This document shows positions 71 through 62,234 of a stretch of DNA of 64,000 nt, piece by piece; within the stretch, counting starts at the first letter, position 1; the number at the start of each line of letters is the position of its first letter. Under the pieces are notes generated by a model, which had not been told where the DNA came from, ran no database searches, and saw only the letters and a list, made by a program, of their open reading frames with translations. The position numbers and the translations under genes are program-made. This stretch comes from Heterodontus francisci (Eukaryota): NCBI RefSeq assembly GCF_036365525.1, contig NC_090413.1:15422151-15486150 (forward strand), in the 5' to 3' direction.

Positions 71-617
71 AATGGGACAATCTGCATGTCTGTCCTGTAA
101 CAGAGGACTGAGATGAACCAGACTTCAAATAAACACAATTATGATGCTCTGGTGATGGAAACAGTGGCAAGGAAAGACATATTGTTTTTTTATCTTAAAT
201 GGAGTTAAACATCCTTTGTGTTCCCTACTGTTATCAGAGCTTCTTAATACGCTGAGCTCCTCACTCTATTTGCGACTGTAACCTTCAGGCCTGTCACACA
301 CACACACTGTGAATGCAGCAAACTTAACAGACCAAGAACCCTCCATGACACAGATGAGCTGAAGGAATGAGGTCCCACTTTCTCTAAATCTTGGATATTC
401 TCGTAAAGGCCGAGCATCGTAGCTGGGGTAAAGAAATAATTGGAAGACTCATTCCTCGGGTTGCCAAACTCTGGTTGGGTGTATTCGTGGAGGTTTCATC
501 ACAGGAACTGTCGCTGCCCACTGCCCCATGCCATTGGTTGCCCAACATGTCCATCATCGCGACGCTCCACTTTCCCGTGCCAATTGAGAAGCAGACACTG
601 CATGACCCAATTGGATG
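71..617. repeat. Left arm of long inverted duplication (reverse complement of 1339-1931)
   Basis: AATGGGACAATCTG...CATGACCCAATTGGATG is the near-identical reverse complement of 1339-1931. The right arm has ~37 extra nt near 1556-1594. Confidence 0.95.
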
Positions 618-1171
618 TATTTTGCGTACTTCGTACTTCGGGAATACATAATTACAAGTGTTAAGTAGTCTATAGTAGGGTAGAGCATTGTATTGCATGA
701 TATCTGGAGTAACTTAATAAAGTTTGAGATCTGACTCAGTCTGTTGAGTGTATTTCATTCTTCCTGTAATTCTCATGTCTGAACCAGAATAAGTAGACTA
801 AAACATTTTACACCATTATTTTCAGTGTTATCACACTTCTCTAAGGTCTCTCTAGGCCTAGGCTTTCATTACTTTAGATAGATGCCTTCCTTAGCCCTAA
901 GGTCTTTGTTTATTTCTGACAATGCTGTCTGGTTTCTTGCTGTTTTGTCACAGTTCAGCAAATTTGATCTTAAAAAGTTGCAAGAAGAAAAAAAAGTGAT
1001 GTTTTCAGCATTGACCACAGTTTGACACAGGGCATGAATGGTCAGGCTTCAGTGTAAGGTTAATTTTAGTGAAGCTAATGACTGTTTTACAGTGGAGAAT
1101 AGTAAGCTGAGTCCATCCCATTTGTATAATTGAACATCCTTCTCGAGGAGCACCAAACTGTGGATTCAGAA

Positions 1172-1498
1172 GGGTTGCCAACCCTCCAGGATTGTCCTGA
1201 AGTCTCCAACATTTGAAGATTAATCTCCAGTGCAATTAAAAATGTGAGGTGTTTTGAAAAAAATTCTTTGTACACTTCAGCTTATTAGTTAGAAACAAAA
1301 ACATTGGCAATGGAGGATCAAGTACTGAAGTTAAGAGCCATCCAATTGGGTCATGCAGTGTCTGCTTCTCAATTGGCACGGGAAAGTGGAGCATCGTGTT
1401 GACGGACATGTTGGGCAACCAATGGCGTGGGGCAGTGGGCGGCGACAGTTCCTGCGATGAAACCTCCACGAATACACCCAACCAGAGTTTGGCAACCC
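1172..1498. mobile_element. Unclassified MITE / non-autonomous DNA transposon
   Basis: Terminal inverted repeats GGGTTGCCAA (1172) and TTGGCAACCC (to 1498). No coding capacity; TSD not evident. Confidence 0.6.
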
Positions 1499-1931
1499 GA
1501 GGAATGAGTCTTCAAATTATTTCTTTACCCCAGCTAAGATGCTCGGCCTTTACGAGCGTCAGTGCATTGATTCATTTTAATTACTTCACTGTCAGAATAT
1601 CCCAAGATTTAGAGAAAGTGGGACCTCATTCCTTCAGCTTATCTGTGTCATGGAGGGTTGTTGGTCTGTTAAGTTTGCTGCATTCACAGTGTGTGTGTGT
1701 GTGTGTGACAGGCCTGAAGGTCTCAGTCGCAAATAGAGTGAGGAGCTCAGAGTATTAAGAAGCTCTGATAACAGTAGGGAACAGAAAGGATGTTTAACTC
1801 CATTTAAGATAAAAACCAATATGTCTTTCCTTGCCACTGTTTCCGTCACCAGAGCATAATAATTGTGTTTATTTGAAAGTCTGGTTTATCTCAGTGCTCT
1901 GTTACAGGACAGACACACAGATTGTCCCATT
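1339..1931. repeat. Right arm of long inverted duplication
   Basis: CATCCAATTGGGTCATG...ATTGTCCCATT pairs with 71-617. Confidence 0.95.
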
Positions 1932-2374
1932 TCATGATTTCTGACATCGCTGTTATCAGCCTTGTCAACACAGAGACCTTGGTGATGCAAGTGTTTATAT
2001 GAATTATTCAACCTCACTGCAATAAAACAAAATTTCACATCTGTGAATTATTAGCACCTTTCTAGCTTCACAGATCCATGTGCTGCTCAACACAATTTGT
2101 TTCAATAAATATATAAAATTCAGAAATCAGTTTCTGGAACCGCAGTAAGAAATAGCCCGAGGGACGCTTGTTTTTTGGGGGGTTTCCACTCTTCTCCTTG
2201 CTGTCCTTACCCTTACTCGGCTACTGTTTCACCGGCACCGGCTGCCCGGCTGTGCCACAACCAAGTGCCTGGTCATTTCCGTGAGCCTGAGCGAGTGAGT
2301 GCTGGCAGGCTGCTCGACCATCGGTGGCACCTCTAGCATGATCGACCTCGTCCTTACCAGCCTGTCCTCTGCAC

Positions 2375-3012
2375 TCACACACACAGACCGAACAAACTGA
2401 CACATAAACACATCAAACAGCCAAACACAAACCAGACAGACACACACAGGCACACACAAAAACAGACACACAAACACCAAAGAGACACGCACATCAAACA
2501 GACAGACAGACATCAAACAGACAGACACACACCAAACAGACAGACATCAAACAGACAGACAGATATCAAACAGACAGACACACACACAAACAGACAGACA
2601 AACACCAAAGAGACACACACACACCAAACAGACAGACAGGCACATACACAGACAAACACACCAAACAGAGAAACACATACCCAGACAGATATCAGACAGA
2701 CATGCACCAAACAGACAGACAGACACACAAATAAACACACACCAAACAGACAGACAGACACACACAGCAGACACAGACAAACAGGCACACACCAAATACA
2801 CAGACAGACATACACAACAGACACACTCACGCAAACAGACACACACACACCAAACAGACAGACACACACACACACACACACAACAGACAGACACACACAA
2901 CAGATACACACACACACAACAGACAGGCACACACCAAACAGACAGATGCATGCACATGCACAAAAATAAAATCTAAGACAGACATACATAGCAAAGAAGC
3001 ACACAGACATGT
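2375..3012. repeat. Compound (CA)/(CAGA)/(CAAA) microsatellite, left part
   Basis: Visible ACAC/ACAG/CCAAAC tracts. They explain the Cys/Val-rich minus-strand ORFs. Confidence 0.95.
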
Positions 3013-4674
3013 GGAAGTGGTGACGTAATGGTAAATAGTAAAGCAGGGCCCCAGACTAATACTCATGGGTTTAAATCCCACCATGGCAGATAATAAAATC
3101 TAAATTCAATTAATAAATCTGGAATTAAAAGCTATTCTGGTAATGACTGTGAAAACATTGTTGTTTAAAAAAAAAACATCTGGTTCACTAATGCCCTTTA
3201 GGGAAGGCCTTACCTGGTCTGGCCTACATATGACTCCAGATCCACAGCAATGTGGTTGACTCTTAAATGTCCTCTGAAATGGCCTAATAAGCCACTCAGT
3301 TTATATCAAAGAAAAGGAATAAAACCAGATAGACCATGTGGCATTGACCTAGGCACTGGAAATGACAACAGCAAACCCAGCCCTGTTGACCCTACAAAGT
3401 CCTCCTTACTTACATCTGGGGACTTCTGCCAAAATTAGGAGAGCTGTCCCACAGACTAGTCAAGCAGCAGACTGACATAGTCATATTTACAGAAACACAT
3501 GTTACAGACAATATCCCAGACACCACCACCACCATCCTTGGGTATGTCCTGTCCTACTGGCAGGACAGACCCACCAGAGATGGTGGCACAGTGGTATACA
3601 ATCAGGAAGGAGTTATCCTGGGACTCCTCAACATTGACTTCAGACCCCATGAAGTCTCATGGCATCAGGCCAAACATGGACTAGGAAACCTCCTGCTGAT
3701 TACCACCTACCATGCCCCCCCCCCCCCCCCACTCAGCTGATGAATCTGTTCTCCTCCATGCTAGGAAGCACATGGGCTCAAAATGTACTCTGGATGGGAG
3801 ACTTCAATGCCCATCACTAAGAGTGGCTCAGTAGCACCCCTACCGGCTGACCCCTAAAGGACAGAGCTGCATGACTGGGCCTGCAGCAGGTGATGAGGAG
3901 AAAAACCCACTTGACCTCATCCTGAGCAATCTACCTGTCACAGGTGCATCTGTCCATGACAGTATGGTAGGAGTGACCACTGCACAGTCCTCGCAGAGCC
4001 GAAGTCCCATCGTGACATTGAGGATACCCATTATCATGATGTGTGGCACTACCACTGTGCTAAATGGGATCAATTTCAAACAGATCTAGCAACTCAAAAC
4101 TGGGCATCCGTGAGGTGCTGTGGGCCATCAGCAGCAGAATTGTGCTCAACCACAATCTGTAACCTCATGGCCCGGCATATCCCCCACTCTACCATTACCA
4201 TCAAGCTGGGGACCAACCCTGGTTCAGTCAGGAGGGCATACCTAAAAATTAGGTAAAAATAAAAGCCCGATGAGGCTACAACACAGGACTACTAGCATGC
4301 CAGACAGCAGAGGCAGCATGCAATAGAGAGGGCTAAGCAATCCCACAACCAACAGATCAGATCTAAGCTCTGAAGTCCTGCCACATCCAGTCGTGAATGG
4401 CGGTGGACAATTAAACAAATGACAGGAGAAGGAGGGTCCACAAATATCCCCATCTTCAATGATGGGGGAACTTAACACATCAGAGCAAAGGACAACTTTG
4501 AAGCATTTACATCCATCTTCAGTCAGAAGTGCCAAATGGATGATCCATCTCGGCCTCCTCCTGAGGTTCTCAGCATCACAGATAACAGTCTTCAGGCAAT
4601 CTGATTCACTCCATGTGATATCAAGAAACAGCTGAAGGCTACAGGCCCTGACAACATTCTGGCAATAATACTGA

Positions 4675-5992
4675 TAATGGATAATGGGGATCCTGTAGAT
4701 GTAGTTTATCTGGACTTCCAGAAGACATTTGATAAGGTGCCACACAAAAGGTTAATACACAAGGTAAGATCACATGGGGTTAGATTAGAGATACAGCACT
4801 GAAACAGGCCCTTCGGCCCACCGAGTCTGTGCCGAACATCAACCACCCATTTATTAGGTTAGGGGCAATTTATTCTCTTGGATAGAGGATTGGCTAACCA
4901 ACAGAAAACAGAGAGTCGGGATAGATGGGTCTTTTTCTGGTTGGCAAGATGTAACTAGTGGTGTGCCACAGGGTTCGGTCCTCGGGCCCCAACTATTTAC
5001 AATCTATATAAATGACTTGGATGCAGGGATAGAAGGTACTATAGCCAAATTTGCAGATGACCCTAAAATAGGTGGGATAGTAAGTTCCAATAAAGAAATA
5101 AGAAATTTACAAATGGATATGAATAGATTAGATAAATGGGCCAAAATTTGGCAGATGGATTTTAACGTGGATAAGTGTGAGGTTATCCATTTTGGTCAGA
5201 AGACTAGAAAGGCAAATTATTATCCAAATGGAGAGAAACTTCAGAGTGCTTCGGTGCAGAGGGATCTGGGTGTCCTCGTGCATGAATCGCAGAAAACTAG
5301 TTTGCAGATACAGCAGGTGATAAGGAAGGCAAATGGAATTTTGACATTTATTGCTAAAGGAATAGAGTATAAAAGTAGGGAAGTGTTGCTGCAACTGTAC
5401 AAGGCATTAGTGAGACTGCACCTGGAGTATTGCGGACAGTTTTGGCCCCCTTACTTGAGAAAGGATGTAGTTGCATTGGAGGCAGTTCAGAGGAGGTTCA
5501 CTAGATTGATTCCAGAGATGAGGGGCTTGTCTTATGATGAGAGATTGAGCAGTTTAGGCCTTTACTCTCTGGAGTTTAGAAGAATGAGAGGAGATCTAAT
5601 TGAGGTATACAAGATGATTAAGGGGATTGACAAAGTAGACATTGAGAGGATATTTCCTCTTGGTGGGGCAATCTAGAATGAGAGGTCATAGTTTTAGGAT
5701 AAGGGGTAGCATATTTAAAACAGAGATCAGGAGAAATTACTTCTCTCAAAGGGTCATGAATCTGTGGAATTCACTACCCCAGAGTGCGGTGAATGTCAGG
5801 ACATTGGGTAAATTTAAGGAGGAGATAGACAGATTTTTAATTAGAAATGGGTTGAAGGGTTATGGAGAATGGGCAGGAAAGTGGAGTTGAGGCCGAGATG
5901 AGATCAGCCATGATCGTATTGAATGGCGGAGCAGGGTTGAGGGGCTGAATTGCCTACTCCTGCTCCTAGTTCTTATATTCTTATGTTCTTAT
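4675..5992 (+). mobile_element. 5'-truncated CR1-clade LINE nested in the 3013-7472 element
   Basis: ORF 4963-5676 has GSVLGPQLF, KFADD, DLGV, LEYC. Tail (TTCTTATG)n. Flanked by ATACTGA/GTACTGA. Confidence 0.92.
4784..4856 (-). mobile_element. HE1-type SINE 3' fragment nested in CR1
   Basis: Reverse complement of the HE1 tail (GGGTGGTTGATG...GGGCCTGTTTCAGTGCTGTATCTCTAA), flanked by GGTTAG on both sides. Confidence 0.85.
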
Positions 5993-7511
5993 GTACTGAA
6001 GACTTGTGCTGCAGAACTAGCCACGCCCCTAGCCAAGCTGGTACAGTACAGCTAAAACATCGGCATCTACCCTGCAATGTGGAAAAATTGCCCAGGTAAG
6101 TCTTGTCCACAAAAAGCAGGACAAGTCCAAACCGGCCAATTACCGCTGATCAGTCGACTCTCAATCATCAGTAAAGTGACGGAAGGGGTTGTCGACAGTG
6201 CTATAAAGTGGCATTTGCTCAACCTGCTCACTGACGCTCAGGGCCAGGGCCAGTCAGCTCCTGACCTCATTACAGCCGTGGTCCAAACATGGACAAAAGA
6301 ACTGAACTCCAGAGGTGAGATGAGAGTGACTGCCCTTGACATCAAGGCAGTATTTGATCAAATATGGCATCAAGGAGCCCTAACAAAAATGAAGTCAATG
6401 GGAACCAGGGGGAAAACTCTCCGCTGGTTGGTGTCATACCTAGCACAAAGAAAGATGATTATGGTTGTTGGAGGTCAGTCATCTCAGTCCCAGGACCTTA
6501 CTGCAGGTGTTCCTCAGGGTAATGTCCAAGGCCCAACCACCTTCAGCAGCTTCATCAATGACCTTCTCTCCATCATAAGGTCAGAAGTGGTATTGTTTGC
6601 TGATGATTGCACAATGTTCAGCATCATTTGCGACTCCTCCGATACAGAAGCAGCCCGTGTCCATATGCAACAAGACCTGGACAACATCCAGGTTTGGGCT
6701 GGTAAATGGCAAGTAACATTCGCGCCACAAAAGTGCCAGACAATGACCATCTCAAACAGGAGAGAATCTAACCATCTCCCCTTGACATTCAACAGCATTA
6801 CCATCGCTGAATCCTCCACTATCAACATCCTAGGGGATACCATTCACCAGAAACTGAACTGGACCAGACACAAAATGATATGGCTGCAAGAGCAGATCAG
6901 AGGCTGAAAATTCTGCAGCGAGTAACTCACCTCCTGTCTCCAAGTCAGGAGTGTGAAGTAATACTCTCCACTTGCCTGGATGGGTGCAGCACCAACAACA
7001 CTCAAGAAGCTCGACATCATCCAGGACAAAGCAGCCCGCTTGATTGGCACCCCATCCACCATCTTCAACATTCACTCCCTTCACCACTGACACACAGTGG
7101 CAGCAATGTGTACCATCTACAAGATGCACTGCAGCAACTCACTACGGCTCCTTCGACAGCACCTTCCAAACCTGTGACCTCAACCACCTAGAAGGACAAG
7201 GGCAGCAGATGCATGAGAACATCACCACCTGCAAGTTCCCTTCCAAGTCACACATCATCCTGACTTGGAACTATATCACCGTTCCTTCATTGTCGCTGGG
7301 TCAAAATCCTGGAACTCCCTTCCTAACAGCACTGTGGGTGTACCTACCTCACAAGGATTGCAGGGGTTTAAAGAAGGCAGCTCACCATCGCCTTCTCAAG
7401 GACAATTAGGGATGGGCAATAAATGCTGGCCTTGTCAGCGATGCCCACATCCCATTAATGTATAAAAAAGAAACACAAATATGTACATCACAGACACACA
7501 CACAATCACAC

Positions 7512-20284: not shown

Positions 20285-20718
20285 GGAAGGCGGTGGAGTA
20301 GTGGTATTGTCACTGGACTAGTAACCCAGAGACCCAGGGTATTGCTCTGGGGACATGGGTTCAAATCCCACCACAGCAGAAGGTGGAATTTGAATTCAAT
20401 TAATAAATCTGGAATTAAAAAGCCAGTCTAACGATGGCCATGAAACCATTGTCGATTGTTGTAAAAACCCATCTGGTTCACTAATGTCCTTTAGGGAAGG
20501 AAATCTGCTGTCCTTACCTGGTCTGGCCTACATGTGACTCCAGACCCACAGCAATGTGGTTGACTCTTACATGCCCTCTGAAATGGCCTAGCAAGCCACT
20601 CAGTTGTACCTAACCGCTACAAAGTCCAAATGGACTGTGGCGGTTCAAGGGCAATTGGGGATGGGTAATAAATGCTGGCCTAGCCAGCGATGCCCACATC
20701 CCATGAATAAAAAAAAAG
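20285..20718 (+). mobile_element. tRNA-derived SINE sharing head and tail with the 3013-7472 LINE
   Basis: A box TGGAGTAGTGG, B box GGTTCAAATCC, core CCCATCTGGTTCACTAATGTCCTTTAGGGAAGG...GCCACTCAGTT, tail GGGCAATTGGGGATGGGTAATAAATGCTGG...poly-A. Confidence 0.9.
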
Positions 20719-21930: not shown

Positions 21931-23029
21931 CGACCTTGTCATGGCTTGAAAGGATCAATTCTTATGAAGAGCATTTCCAGCTGACGGCCTCCTGCACCAG
22001 GAAAAGGCATTAAGATTCTGTTTGCATGCCCCTCGAATAATTCCCTGTCCATTCATTCATACACTTGCACCAAATGCAACTTTAAAAAGGATAAACGTGC
22101 GTTAATAGTTAATTTCATACGATAAAGTATAAGAAAGTTCAACATTTCATCCCAGTAGGAGCAATTACAATGAGAAATAAATAGCTGTACTAGTTTGGCT
22201 TAGTTGAAAGCATTACTGGCCTATAATTCAGGAACTAATAGGTTCAAGGTTCCGCTCCATTATCTGATTGGGATCATTGCGTTTAGATAAAATGATAAGT
22301 TGATGCCCTGGCTGCTGGGTCCGCTGGATTTCAAGGAGCTAAGAAAAGGTAACAGGGAAATTTCTGGTTTGCTATCCAACTTACTTCCCCCAACCCACAC
22401 AGCATAGATCAACATGGTTTGTTTTCAGCAGTTTTAGAGTTTAGAACAAGGAGACTACTGTACAAGATTAAATAGATAGGACAGAGAGTAGGAGATATTT
22501 TTTTAACACGGGGGTTGTGAGGCTTTGGAATACACTGCTAGAGTTAGTGACCGAAACAGAGACCATGTCAACATTTAACAACACATGGTTGAAGGAAAGT
22601 GGACTCTCTATACACCTGACTTGTTCTTGACTGAGCTCATATCATACAGAAAGTATGTTCCTTTATAGATAACACTTGGTCCATCTGATCTCCTGTACTG
22701 GTTTCAATCACCTGAGGGGGTCTAGAGAGGAATTTTCCAGAATATTTCTATCCCTGATTGGCCCTAGGGTTTTTTAGGGGTTTCTTTGCCTCTTCCAGAG
22801 GTCACATGGCTGCAGCAGGAGGCGGAGTTAGGGGAATGGGGTGGGGAAGTGACTGGTCATGATATTCCTTCATCTTGCTTGTGGGGCAGGCTTGATGGAA
22901 CCAGCTTATCTTTTCCTGTCTGTCATTTTCTAATGGGACAAGACCAATTCCTGCCATAGGGAAGATAAACACTAACATGGAGTGGTTGGACCGAACAGTC
23001 TGTTTCAGTGCTGTCATTTTGGTGCAATT

Positions 23030-23790
23030 TTTTTTTTATTCCTTTCATGGAAAGTGGGCGTCGCTGGCCAGGCCAGCATTTATTGCCCATCCCTAATTGC
23101 CCTTGAGAAGGTGGTGATGAGCTGCCTTCTTGAACTGCAGCAGTCCATGTGAGGTAGGTACACCCACAGTGCTGTTAGGAAGGGAGTTCCAGGATTTTGA
23201 CCCAGCGACAGTGAAGGAACGGCGATATAGTTCCCAGTTAGGATGGTGTGTGACTTGGAGGGAACTTGCAGGTGGTGGTGTTCCCATGCATCTGCTGCCC
23301 TTGCCCTTCTAGGTGGTTGAGATTGTGGGTTTGGAAGGTGCTGTTGAAGGAGCCTTGGTGAGTTGCTGTCGTGCATCTTGTAGTGCTGCCAGTATGCATT
23401 GGTGGTGAAGGGAATGAATGTTGGAGGTGGTGGATAGGGTGCTGATTAAGCGGGCTGCTTTGTCCTGGATGGTGTCGAGCTTCTTGAGTGTTGTTGGTGC
23501 TGCAATCATTTAGACAAGTGGAGAGTATTCCATCACGCTCCTGACTTGTGCTTTGTAGATGTGGACAGGCTCTGGGGAGTCAGAAAGTGGGTTAATCACT
23601 GCAGAATTCCCAGCCTCTGACCTTCTCTTGTAGCCACAATGTTTATGTGTCTGGTCCAGTTAAGTTTCTGATCAATGTTCACCCCCAGAATGTTGATAGT
23701 GGGGGATTCAGCGACAGTAATATCATTGGATGTCAAGAGGAGATGATTAGATTCTCTCTTGTTGGAGATGATCATTGCGTGGTACTTGAG
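23030..23790 (-). mobile_element. 3' fragment of the 3013-7472 LINE family
   Basis: Reverse complement of ~6730-7470 (LKKLDTIQDKAARLI, RRSFTVAGSKSWNSLP). Confidence 0.9.
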
Positions 23791-31514: not shown

Positions 31515-32215
31515 TTGGCAGTGGCCTTTCACATCTGCGGACCATGGTTGAAATCCAAACTTGATTAATGGGTCTTGTCTGTCTGCTGGTTCTGAGGGTC
31601 CAATGGGAAATTAGTTTCTTTAAAATTCATTCATGGAATGCGGGAGTCGCTGGTAAGACCAGCATTTATTATCCCATCCCTAATTGCCCTGGAGAAGGTG
31701 GTGCTGAGCCGCCTTCTTGAACTGCTGCAGTCCATGTGGGGTGGATCTACCCACAGTGCTGTTAGGGAAGGAGTTCCAGGACTTTGACCCAGCGGACGAT
31801 GATGGAAAGGCGGCGGGCGATATTACTTCCAAGCCAGGATGGGTGCGTGACTTGGAGGGGAACTTGCAGGTGGTGGTGTTCCCTTGTATCTGCTGCCCTT
31901 GTTCCAGGTGGTAGAGGTCACGGGTGTGGAAGGAGCTAGTTGCTTGGCTAGTTGCTGTAATGCATCTTGTAGATCATCACACTGCTGCCGGTGGTGGTGA
32001 GAGTGAATGTTTACCATGATGCATGGTTAGGCGGTTTTAACCCAGTTCTTAGTGGGCACGGGGCACTAAGAGGTTGGTGAACAGACAGCTGTCCCACCGG
32101 CACTGTAGGAAGTGCTCTTCTGAGATTAAAACTGGTTCACCTTGTTGGAGCAGAGTAGAATGAGCATAACTCTGCATCAAAGCATACTATGCAGACACTC
32201 AACACATGAAATGGA
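31515..32215 (+). mobile_element. Ancient LF-SINE-like element split by a LINE fragment
   Basis: GCCTTTCACATCT..GGTTGAAATCC head, then CCCAGTTCTTAGTGGGCACG after the insertion. Resembles the recalled LF-SINE consensus. Confidence 0.45.
31622..32015 (-). mobile_element. 3' fragment of the 3013-7472 LINE family
   Basis: Reverse complement of the LINE tail (CCCATCCCTAATTGCCC, GGAGTTCCAGGACTTTGACCCAGCG). Confidence 0.85.
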
Positions 32216-61094: not shown

Positions 61095-61485
61095 TTTTTG
61101 TAATTTGTTCATGGGATGTGGGTGTGGCTGGCAAGCCTCGCATTTATTGTCCATTCCTAATTGTCCTTGAGAAGGTGGTAGTGAGCCATCTTCTTGAACT
61201 GCTGCAGTCTGTATGGTGTAGGTACATCCACAGTGCTCGTAGATGGAAAGTTCCAGGATTTTGACCCAGTGACAGTGAAGGAACGGCGATATTGTTCCAA
61301 ATCGGGATGGTATGTGGCTTGGAGGGGAACTTGCAGGTGGTGGTGTTCCCATGCACCTGCTGCCCTTGTCCTTCGAGGTGGTAGAGGTCGCGGGTTTGGA
61401 AGGTGCTGTCGAAGGAACTTTGGTGAGTTGATGCAGTGCATCTTGCGAACGGTACACACTGCTGCCACTGTGCACCAGTGGTGGA
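61095..61485 (-). mobile_element. 3' fragment of the 3013-7472 LINE family
   Basis: KMHCINSPKFLRQHLPNPRPLPPRRTR...RRSFTVTGSKSWN. Confidence 0.88.
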
Positions 61486-62234
61486 GAGAGAGAGCAGTTT
61501 TATTGGAGTAAGAAATCTTAATTTGTTTTTGCAGCAAATCCAGGAGGTAATATCACTCAGTTTCACCATGGAACCAGCAACAACAGAAAGTATCTAAAGA
61601 TGAAAAGTGGGAGGAAGATACAGGAAGAAATACATTGATTGATGCTGGTTACAGGAGCATGCATAATGGGAACATTCATCTCTGAAGAGCGCTTCCTAGA
61701 CGTCTATTGATTCTCAATACACAACGTATTTAAATTAGTACCAATGAATTTTCCTTATCAAGGACAGTCTCAGAAATTGGACCACTCAATGGTCATTAAA
61801 TTGTTATGATTTTTTAGCTCTTTGCCACACACCAGATTCAATATTGCTCCAGGGAAGCCTCATGTTAAATTTCCTTTGTTTCAGGCAGTGAGGTTATTTC
61901 CAGTTGTTCCGCTGTTCTCACTACAAAATAAAAGATACGGTCTGTTAAAATAGTGCCCTACGCCCCCAACACTTCTGAAGCTGCAAGTGATGCTTGAGGG
62001 CCTGATAAAATTCCAGGCTCCAAAAAGCAAAGCCAAGTAACTTCACTCACTCATTGGGAGTGAGTGGCTGCACAGGAGATCAAGTGTGTGCCAGACTTTG
62101 CAGAGATTACCAGATGGGTCCTTGTTGGAAGGTGTGCCCTTAACAGTTTTGTATTCATCCTCTCCCTGTGGACCAACATTAATTAGAAACTTACAAACTA
62201 TTTTTACATGCTAACTTTCTTTAACATTTCTTAC

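Follow-up and report, generated by a model that had tools for sequence, protein, structure and literature searches.

Near the start of a 64,000-nucleotide (nt) stretch of Heterodontus francisci contig NC_090413.1 (hereafter the window) lies a broken retrotransposon (3013-7472) that begins like a short interspersed element (SINE), its head derived from a tRNA, and continues as a long interspersed element (LINE), with an open reading frame (ORF) for an apurinic/apyrimidinic endonuclease (APE) and a reverse transcriptase (RT). LINEs and SINEs are distinguished by polymerase, LINEs being RNA polymerase II (Pol II) mRNAs and SINEs RNA polymerase III (Pol III) non-coding RNAs, and Pol III is thought to make only short non-coding RNAs. 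The locus raises the question of which polymerase made the RNA of such an element and how its protein was translated. We found that 3013-7472, minus a nested CR1-type insertion, represents an old and defective member of a high-copy LINE family with a single ORF in 3.3 kb; as this copy cannot work, the question becomes what the family did. Because the family has a fixed tRNA-type promoter, a purge of T-runs, a selected ORF and a full-length start where Pol III would start, we propose that its full-length RNA was probably transcribed by Pol III, with cis, cap-independent translation of the endonuclease-RT.

The window copy consists of two halves, 3013-4674 and 5993-7472, separated by the 1.3-kb CR1-type insertion. 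It lies 10-15% away from the column majority of the family, with stops and frameshifts along its whole length, and its parts are arranged as follows:

3001-3012, forward strand: possible left target-site duplication (TSD), weak, in an AC-rich target, by recurrence of the 12-mer at 7473
3013-3100, forward strand: tRNA-derived head, decayed, with A box 3021-3031 and B box 3068-3078, from the sequence and the fit of the family-majority boxes to the Pol III consensus
3101-3301, forward strand: SINE body common to the SINE at 20285 (81% to 20354-20605)
3279-3287, forward strand: mini-frame ATG-GCC-stop abutting and in frame with the long ORF, the stop being TAA in the window
3288-4674, forward strand: 5' portion of the ORF, encoding a basic leader, the APE endonuclease and a linker, interrupted by stops and frameshifts and placed by tblastn against natural copy L238 and by Pfam PF03372 and PF14529 on natural copies
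4675-5992, forward strand: nested fragment of a CR1-type LINE with a 5-nt duplication (ACTGA), foreign to the element and used as a local control
5993-7409, forward strand: 3' portion of the ORF, comprising the reverse transcriptase and the C-terminal region, with 7 stops in the window copy
7396-7472, forward strand: 3' tail common to the SINE (stem-loop, AATAAA at 7418-7423, short A-tail), 88% to SINE 20645-20717, with the fold taken from a natural tail
7473-7484, forward strand: possible right TSD, weak

The original prediction held that the first ~290 nt match the SINE at 20285. This was borne out for 3064-3301, which aligns over 252 columns at the identity given above; the first 51 nt of the head were too decayed to align to the SINE in the search, yet they did align to other family copies. 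In the window copy, two positions of the A box and two of the B box depart from the family majority. APE homology begins at 3381, ~80 nt past the end of the head match, and ORF1 therefore has no room in the window copy, as had been predicted, and the AATAAA is where it was said to be. The predicted 12-bp TSD is present, in that the 12-mer at 3001 repeats with 2 mismatches at 7473, directly past the A-tail. However, the same 12-mer also occurs at three further window positions, one of them (2694) inside the adjoining AC-rich repeat, and a duplication of at least 6 nt was found in only 1 of 23 full-length copies (control 2.8%). Because the 12-mer recurs and long TSDs are rare in the family, the duplication is weak evidence for joint insertion of head and body, and not the proof for which it had been taken. 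The insertion target is a long AC-rich simple repeat (window 2229-3012) that yields several spurious ORFs.

Family copies were collected in three genome samples, each taken from top-scoring hits only, so that a diverged parent could escape. The query was the window stretch from the junction to the APE for the first sample, a mid-body stretch for the second and the endonuclease protein alone for the third, for which 150 hits were listed out of 195,531 first-look candidates (not a copy number) and 40 were fetched, comprising the 38 top ranks and 2 picked for long frames. Head sequence lay upstream in 24 of 29 other loci of the first sample (three look like duplicates of one locus). In the second sample 20 of 39 copies extended to the head's first bases, 5 were cut within it and 14 further down, and in the third 26 of 40 reached the head start, 8 were cut within the head and 6 behind it. 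No alternative 5' end was found among the 40 copies chosen by endonuclease alone, and the truncated copies had no common upstream sequence among the top-scoring copies sampled. A junction unique to this locus is ruled out by the head on most copies in all three samples, and among top-scoring hits the lack of a common sequence upstream of truncated copies led us to reject a headless or ORF1-bearing parent in this genome. Full-length copies, ~3.27-3.29 kb long, share one start point, mostly GGGT, ~10 nt before the A box; they have neither ORF1 nor another 5' untranslated region, and the leader leads straight into a single frame. The head-ORF junction is thus fixed and family-wide.

We split the copies by eye into an old group of 11 loci, including the window copy (9-15% from the majority), and a young group of 49 loci (mostly 3-5%). 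Both subfamilies carry the head, and the A and B boxes fit the Pol III consensus in both majorities. Among 18 head differences between the subfamilies, none changed the A box and the B box was altered only at its CpG. ARAGORN calls the head of the SINE at 20285 a tRNA-Thr. An Rfam scan of the 5' region (L066 650-1300) gave only weak matches, to tRNA-Sec (E 0.95) and sR23 (E 0.13), the tRNA-clan match of the head being weak and below the gathering threshold, and no HDV-like ribozyme or known internal ribosome entry site was found there as an Rfam family match.

A column majority built from 59 loci plus the window copy contains one frame of 975 codons (positions 304 to 3231) between a 303-nt leader and a 60-nt tail. 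Natural copies scored above cut-off for Pfam PF03372, PF14529 and PF00078 (APE and RT); catalytic motifs are present in L238, which also has the longest unbroken natural frame seen (942 codons). Between the old and young majorities there are 62.5 synonymous and 25.5 non-synonymous changes, giving a ratio of non-synonymous to synonymous change (pN/pS) of 0.123; without CpG codons the counts are 41.5 and 12.5 and the ratio is 0.087 (APE 0.089, rest 0.068). Within the young copies pN/pS is 0.82 for private variants and drops to 0.20 for those shared by at least five copies. As two headed subfamilies differ with a pN/pS of about 0.09, the protein of the headed element was under purifying selection, and the selection asked for in the original prediction acted while the head was in place.

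The window copy has no sense TTTT in 3013-4674 or 5993-7472, as originally read by hand, while it has 13 and 11 AAAA runs in the two halves; the nested CR1 has 7 runs of at least four T (T4) in 1318 nt. The same had been claimed for three other fragments of the family in the window:

23029-23787, reverse strand: 5'-truncated family copy
31616-32026, reverse strand: 5'-truncated family copy
61108-61493, reverse strand: 5'-truncated family copy

The claim held for the first and third, and failed for the second, which has one TTTT, in its 3' tail only. Across 59 loci (170,059 nt; copies not independent) we counted 40 T4 runs versus 366 G4, 609 C4 and 788 A4 runs. T4 is absent from the column majority of either subfamily, in agreement with the original prediction, and TCTTT is also absent from the column majority. 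One recurrent internal TTTT (11 copies) reflects CpG decay at TTTCG (12/59 versus a mean of 16%) and also creates a stop.

We compared the ORF with 3000 permutations of its synonymous codons, which keep amino acids and codon usage. TTT occurred 4 times versus 12.7 expected (0 of 3000 shuffles were as low) and four T in five once versus 8.7 expected (P 0.0013), whereas isolated TT (68 versus 69 expected) and runs of A, C and G were at expectation. Two natural single frames behaved alike (TTT 5 versus 13.3 and 4 versus 12.5, P 0.0007 each). Variants making a T-run of at least three were rarer among shared (10/191) than among rare variants (89/804; P 0.015), with no such effect for A or C. In host controls, observed/expected (o/e) ratios were 1.05 for TTT and 1.20 for TTTT in 4 CR1-like frames, and 1.02 and 0.93 in 8 other LINE frames (one of which is the window's own RT piece, mis-binned). 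Metagenome relatives with a frame of at least 300 codons (73 of 80) gave o/e values of 0.79-1.16 for TTT and 0.68-1.40 for four in five, against 0.31 and 0.11 in the family. The depletion is therefore run-length-dependent and confined to T on the sense strand, and it fits the canonical and interrupted terminators measured for human Pol III, namely T4 and the motifs T3VT, TVT3 and T2VT2 (PMC3141230). The original prediction had asked whether headless relatives are equally free of T4. All 80 metagenome relatives have T4, and host CR1-type frames are undepleted, but the relatives are at most 40.5% identical. A head profile had no match in the 80 metagenome loci, where low-threshold ARAGORN hits were scattered and were treated as chance.

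The start of the frame is unusual. The leader has nine AUGs, the last of which forms ATG-GCC-TAG, in frame with and abutting the ORF, and an in-frame AUG first occurs at codon 285 (291 in the old group), after the endonuclease, a region as constrained as the remainder of the ORF. As no in-frame AUG precedes the endonuclease, translation would be non-canonical whichever polymerase makes the RNA. The 41 codons ahead of the endonuclease encode a basic stretch that can be aligned, loosely, with the N-terminal extension of a relative at 36% identity, which suggests that they are translated; a protein search with the ORF N-terminus gave one uninformative hit only. Of 99 head copies, 83 have TAG as the mini-frame stop and 13 a sense codon in its place (9 GAG, 3 CAG, 1 TCG), with 1 TAT and 2 TAA, and TAG-to-TGG editing was seen in 0 of 99. 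An AUG start through loss of the TAG was considered and rejected: the sense-codon variants occur in old and young copies and in SINEs alike, and the same T-to-G change is seen at a second CCTAG site, so we read the site as a mutation hotspot. Promoter, terminator purge, selection and missing AUG are all features of the sequences themselves. Beside them, an AUG at majority position 350, out of frame and retained in 44 of 50 copies, begins a short frame that overlaps the start of the ORF, and majority positions 350-490 (window about 3330-3470) are unusually CpG-rich.

For the polymerase, cap state, ribosome entry and start codon we infer the following route. TFIIIC would bind the internal A and B boxes, and Pol III would start where full-length copies begin, ~10 nt before the A box, read 3.3 kb because canonical and interrupted T terminators have been purged, and halt at the first T-run in or past the tail. 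The uncapped RNA would recruit ribosomes internally, and these could enter the frame through reinitiation or read-through at ATG-GCC-TAG-CAA, or else at a near-cognate codon. The protein would then bind the 3' stem-loop of its own RNA and insert it by target-primed reverse transcription, while SINEs with the same head and tail would derive by internal deletion and borrow the LINE protein. In human cells, Pol III-made retroposon RNAs are reported to need no ORF1 (PMC2666806), which fits this model without proving it, as single-ORF LINEs such as ZfL2-2 exist. More tentatively, the conserved SINE body (Deu domain) may be the ribosome-loading element of a 3.3-kb, AUG-less, uncapped Pol III mRNA, and SINEs may be deletion products that keep this domain to reach RT-making ribosomes.

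Several observations weigh against transcription by Pol III or against translation of its product. TTTT taken alone is borderline (0 versus 2.1 expected, P 0.07-0.09), the shared-variant test gives P 0.06 when restricted to synonymous changes, and isolated T3 is reported as nearly inactive as a terminator in vitro (PMC3141230), yet TTT is the most strongly depleted class. The relatives used as controls, whichever polymerase makes their RNA, are mostly T-richer and often 5'-incomplete. All 24 listed sequencing runs are contigs, one of them on record as RNA, and it is sequence signatures that point to Pol III. Although the whole 452-nt head folds with a z of -2.7 in one copy, its sub-regions are mostly not significant in six natural copies, and there the fold of its body does not beat shuffled sequence (z -0.4 to -1.3), which gives no structural support for ribosome entry. 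To our knowledge, there is little vertebrate precedent for an uncapped Pol III RNA of 3.3 kb being translated efficiently. Finally, 5' truncations cluster just behind the head, with 6 of 19 at 290-370 (P 0.001) in one sample and 5 of 13 (P 0.13) in a second, and this cluster could mark a second, shorter RNA. Candidate causes are a reverse-transcription stall, an A-rich joining site or the 5' end of a second RNA. The copies truncated at element positions 290-380 are L038, L065, L069, L072, L076, L201, L202, L212 and L216.

The alternative that survives best, which we nevertheless consider unlikely, is an ordinary Pol II LINE with a captured SINE as its 5' untranslated region, the boxes being passengers or parts of a Pol II promoter and T-runs being avoided for other reasons, such as cryptic splice acceptors or premature polyadenylation. 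LINEs are reported to exchange 5' ends (bioRxiv 10.1101/2022.11.04.512097), and with AATAAA at four majority positions (115, 339, 3240, 3283) U-rich downstream signals might be selected against. However, host CR1-type LINEs and all 80 relatives retain T-runs, the 5' end lies at the expected Pol III start with boxes intact in both subfamilies, and nine leader AUGs without an in-frame start speak against cap-scanning.

It is also improbable, in our assessment, that labour is split, with Pol III making the full-length template that is copied, as the T-run purge would reflect, and Pol II a second, capped RNA for the protein, from this or a sibling copy and with a start that might lie directly behind the head. 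Such an RNA would solve the translation problem, and both the truncation cluster and the retained AUG at position 350 could be taken as its traces. However, that AUG is out of frame with the APE-RT, no in-frame AUG lies ahead of the endonuclease, and shared variants behind it favour the long frame (8/19 synonymous) over the AUG frame (3/19), although this last comparison is weak. Moreover, if the protein came in trans, selection on the ORF that is copied would be relaxed, but its pN/pS is 0.09. A compositional or mutational origin of the T-run depletion, uninformative on polymerase, is very improbable and is largely refuted by the run-length-specific permutation result: T makes up only 20% of the ORF, Phe is 2.0% versus a median of 3.2% in 90 relatives and TTTT alone is not significant, but the permutation holds amino acids and codon usage constant, and the T-poorest relative (L101, T 21.5%) has an o/e of about 1 with 3 T4 runs.

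The SINE that supplied the head comparison bears on the direction of descent.

20285-20718, forward strand: SINE, internal-deletion derivative of the LINE, comprising LINE nt 1-341, ~23 nt from the ORF 3' end and the tail

This SINE is 97% identical to the young natural LINE copy L066 over the first 339 nt and extends ~ten codons into the LINE ORF before the joint. Its ~23-nt middle piece, from the ORF 3' end, was found in 17 of 18 LINE copies, and of the substitution columns separating the two groups, 24 SINE heads agree with the young LINE in 11 and with the old in 6. Because head, ORF-start, ORF-end and tail pieces all match the LINE and the heads mostly follow the younger subfamily, we conclude from these matches that the SINE subfamily at 20285 arose from the headed LINE by deletion. 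The original picture of a SINE head added to a LINE thus captures one direction only. As SacSINE1-type SINEs are reported to be ancient (PMC5499810), the first head may have been taken from a SINE, or the first such SINE may derive from the LINE. Further head-to-tail joints occur in other sequencing runs. Three full-head copies with large internal deletions (L034, L040, L207) are the kind of intermediate that could found new SINEs.

The tails of the two elements are alike. AATAAA lies ~45 nt ahead of the element 3' end, and the majority of tails carry just one T (20 of 39 LINE, 22 of 33 SINE). AATAAA-dependent polyadenylation of a Pol III transcript would call for a T terminator close behind the signal; a T4+ run is present in only 6 of 39 LINE and 6 of 33 SINE tails, and could be tail mutation. 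The tails of L042, L049, L055, L063, L068, L078 and six SINE loci read GAATTTT(T)AAAAA, not GAATAAAAA; a 3' terminator and a mutation hotspot are both candidate explanations.

By its features the family is a LINE, with APE and RT in one ORF, dispersed copies with variable 5' truncation, a fixed 3' tail and no long terminal repeats, and with an ORF under purifying selection in the source lineages (pN/pS 0.087-0.123 versus 0.82 for private variants). It differs from two-ORF CR1-type LINEs in having no ORF1 upstream of ORF2, and its protein is ~30% identical to that of the nested CR1. Like L2-clade elements, it has a 3' stem-loop tail in common with a partner SINE. In a quick tree, which had no named L2 reference and carried long-branch warnings, the family fell among single-frame relatives of 934-1054 amino acids (including marine-invertebrate records), apart from the host CR1-type frame. 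The closest non-shark protein relatives found (P0001-P0013, 38-41% identity) are mostly on 2.8-4 kb contigs, the size of the element, and viral contigs gave no relative. With tRNA-derived SINEs (SINE2) the family shares the A/B-box head and the lack of an internal Pol III terminator, but at 3.3 kb with a selected 975-codon ORF it is neither short nor non-coding. The head and body are presumably of the Deu-domain/SacSINE1 type, an assignment by label and published descriptions rather than by aligned reference sequence. We regard the headed, T-run-depleted, single-ORF element as a LINE variant whose sequence speaks strongly for Pol III transcription and leaves the translation start unexplained.

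Ingi and Vingi elements with small-RNA heads are also known. The nearest known systems are the shark and coelacanth DeuSINEs SacSINE1 and LmeSINE1, which have a tRNA head, a conserved body and an L2-type tail. SacSINE1 is reported from several sharks and a skate, with a tail common to L2-2_CM (PMC5499810), and its partner LINE is given as L2-2_CM or a CR1-4_DR-like element, linked via the tail (PMC5499810, PMC2746220, PMC3747384, PMC4824008). In the available text of PMC5499810 the homology between SacSINE1 and L2-2_CM is confined to the 3' tail, whereas here the LINE bears the SINE's entire head and body and gave rise to the SINE by deletion. The stringent L2 LINE ZfL2-2 likewise has an APE-RT protein and a 3' stem-loop tail common to a SINE, and as it has only ORF2 the lack of ORF1 is not special; a tRNA head, T-run purge and AUG-less start are not among the features given for it in the text available (PMC4176376). 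Bipartite elements (Bov-A, Bov-tA, Vingi/RTE derivatives) are short elements made from the two ends of a LINE, and RTE-1_DAn is a LINE with tRNA-like sequence (PMC5786205). The sources listed in the accessible part of that work are only RTE, Ingi, Vingi and R2, with LINEs assumed to be Pol II-transcribed and the Pol III head added later (PMC5786205). Here, in contrast, the parent LINE was already headed, and, by its protein neighbours, it apparently lies outside those clades. T+ SINEs (B2, Can, Dip, Ves), whose Pol III transcripts are polyadenylated in an AATAAA-dependent manner, also have AATAAA near the 3' end, and some have T2-T5 before the A-run (PMC9599045), but most tails here have a single T, and T+ SINEs are non-coding and described only in placental mammals. 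Our paper searches and a look-up by sequence gave no description of a LINE with this head or of a Pol III-transcribed LINE, nor was there anything closer in the available text of PMC7245038 or PMC4494074, although a headed consensus may already sit in Repbase or Dfam.

If the proposed route is correct, this selected, terminator-purged, protein-coding element with a SINE promoter would be a vertebrate example of a long Pol III mRNA that occurs naturally, and also a self-sufficient retrotransposon that is a SINE by transcription and a LINE by coding. It would offer a direct route from LINE to SINE through deletion alone and make testable whether animals translate uncapped Pol III RNA. It would do the same for the origin and role of conserved SINE middle domains, for which three untested models are on record (PMC5499810).

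The family extends beyond this genome, a conclusion resting on the word content of sequencing runs, not on head-ORF continuity: runs under seven organism labels contain 26-69% of the words sampled from a young copy. Contigs of four runs cover 29-30 of 30 element bins, which indicates presence, not transcription. One named shark gene model (P0081), annotated as an aldo-keto reductase, is 88% identical to the LINE protein over a quarter of the query and is likely a mis-annotation or an exonised copy. Within the nested CR1, a short repeat of ~66 nt (4783-4856) recurs at seven more window positions (e.g. 48839, 11667, 16329 and 28612) with 79-97% identity.

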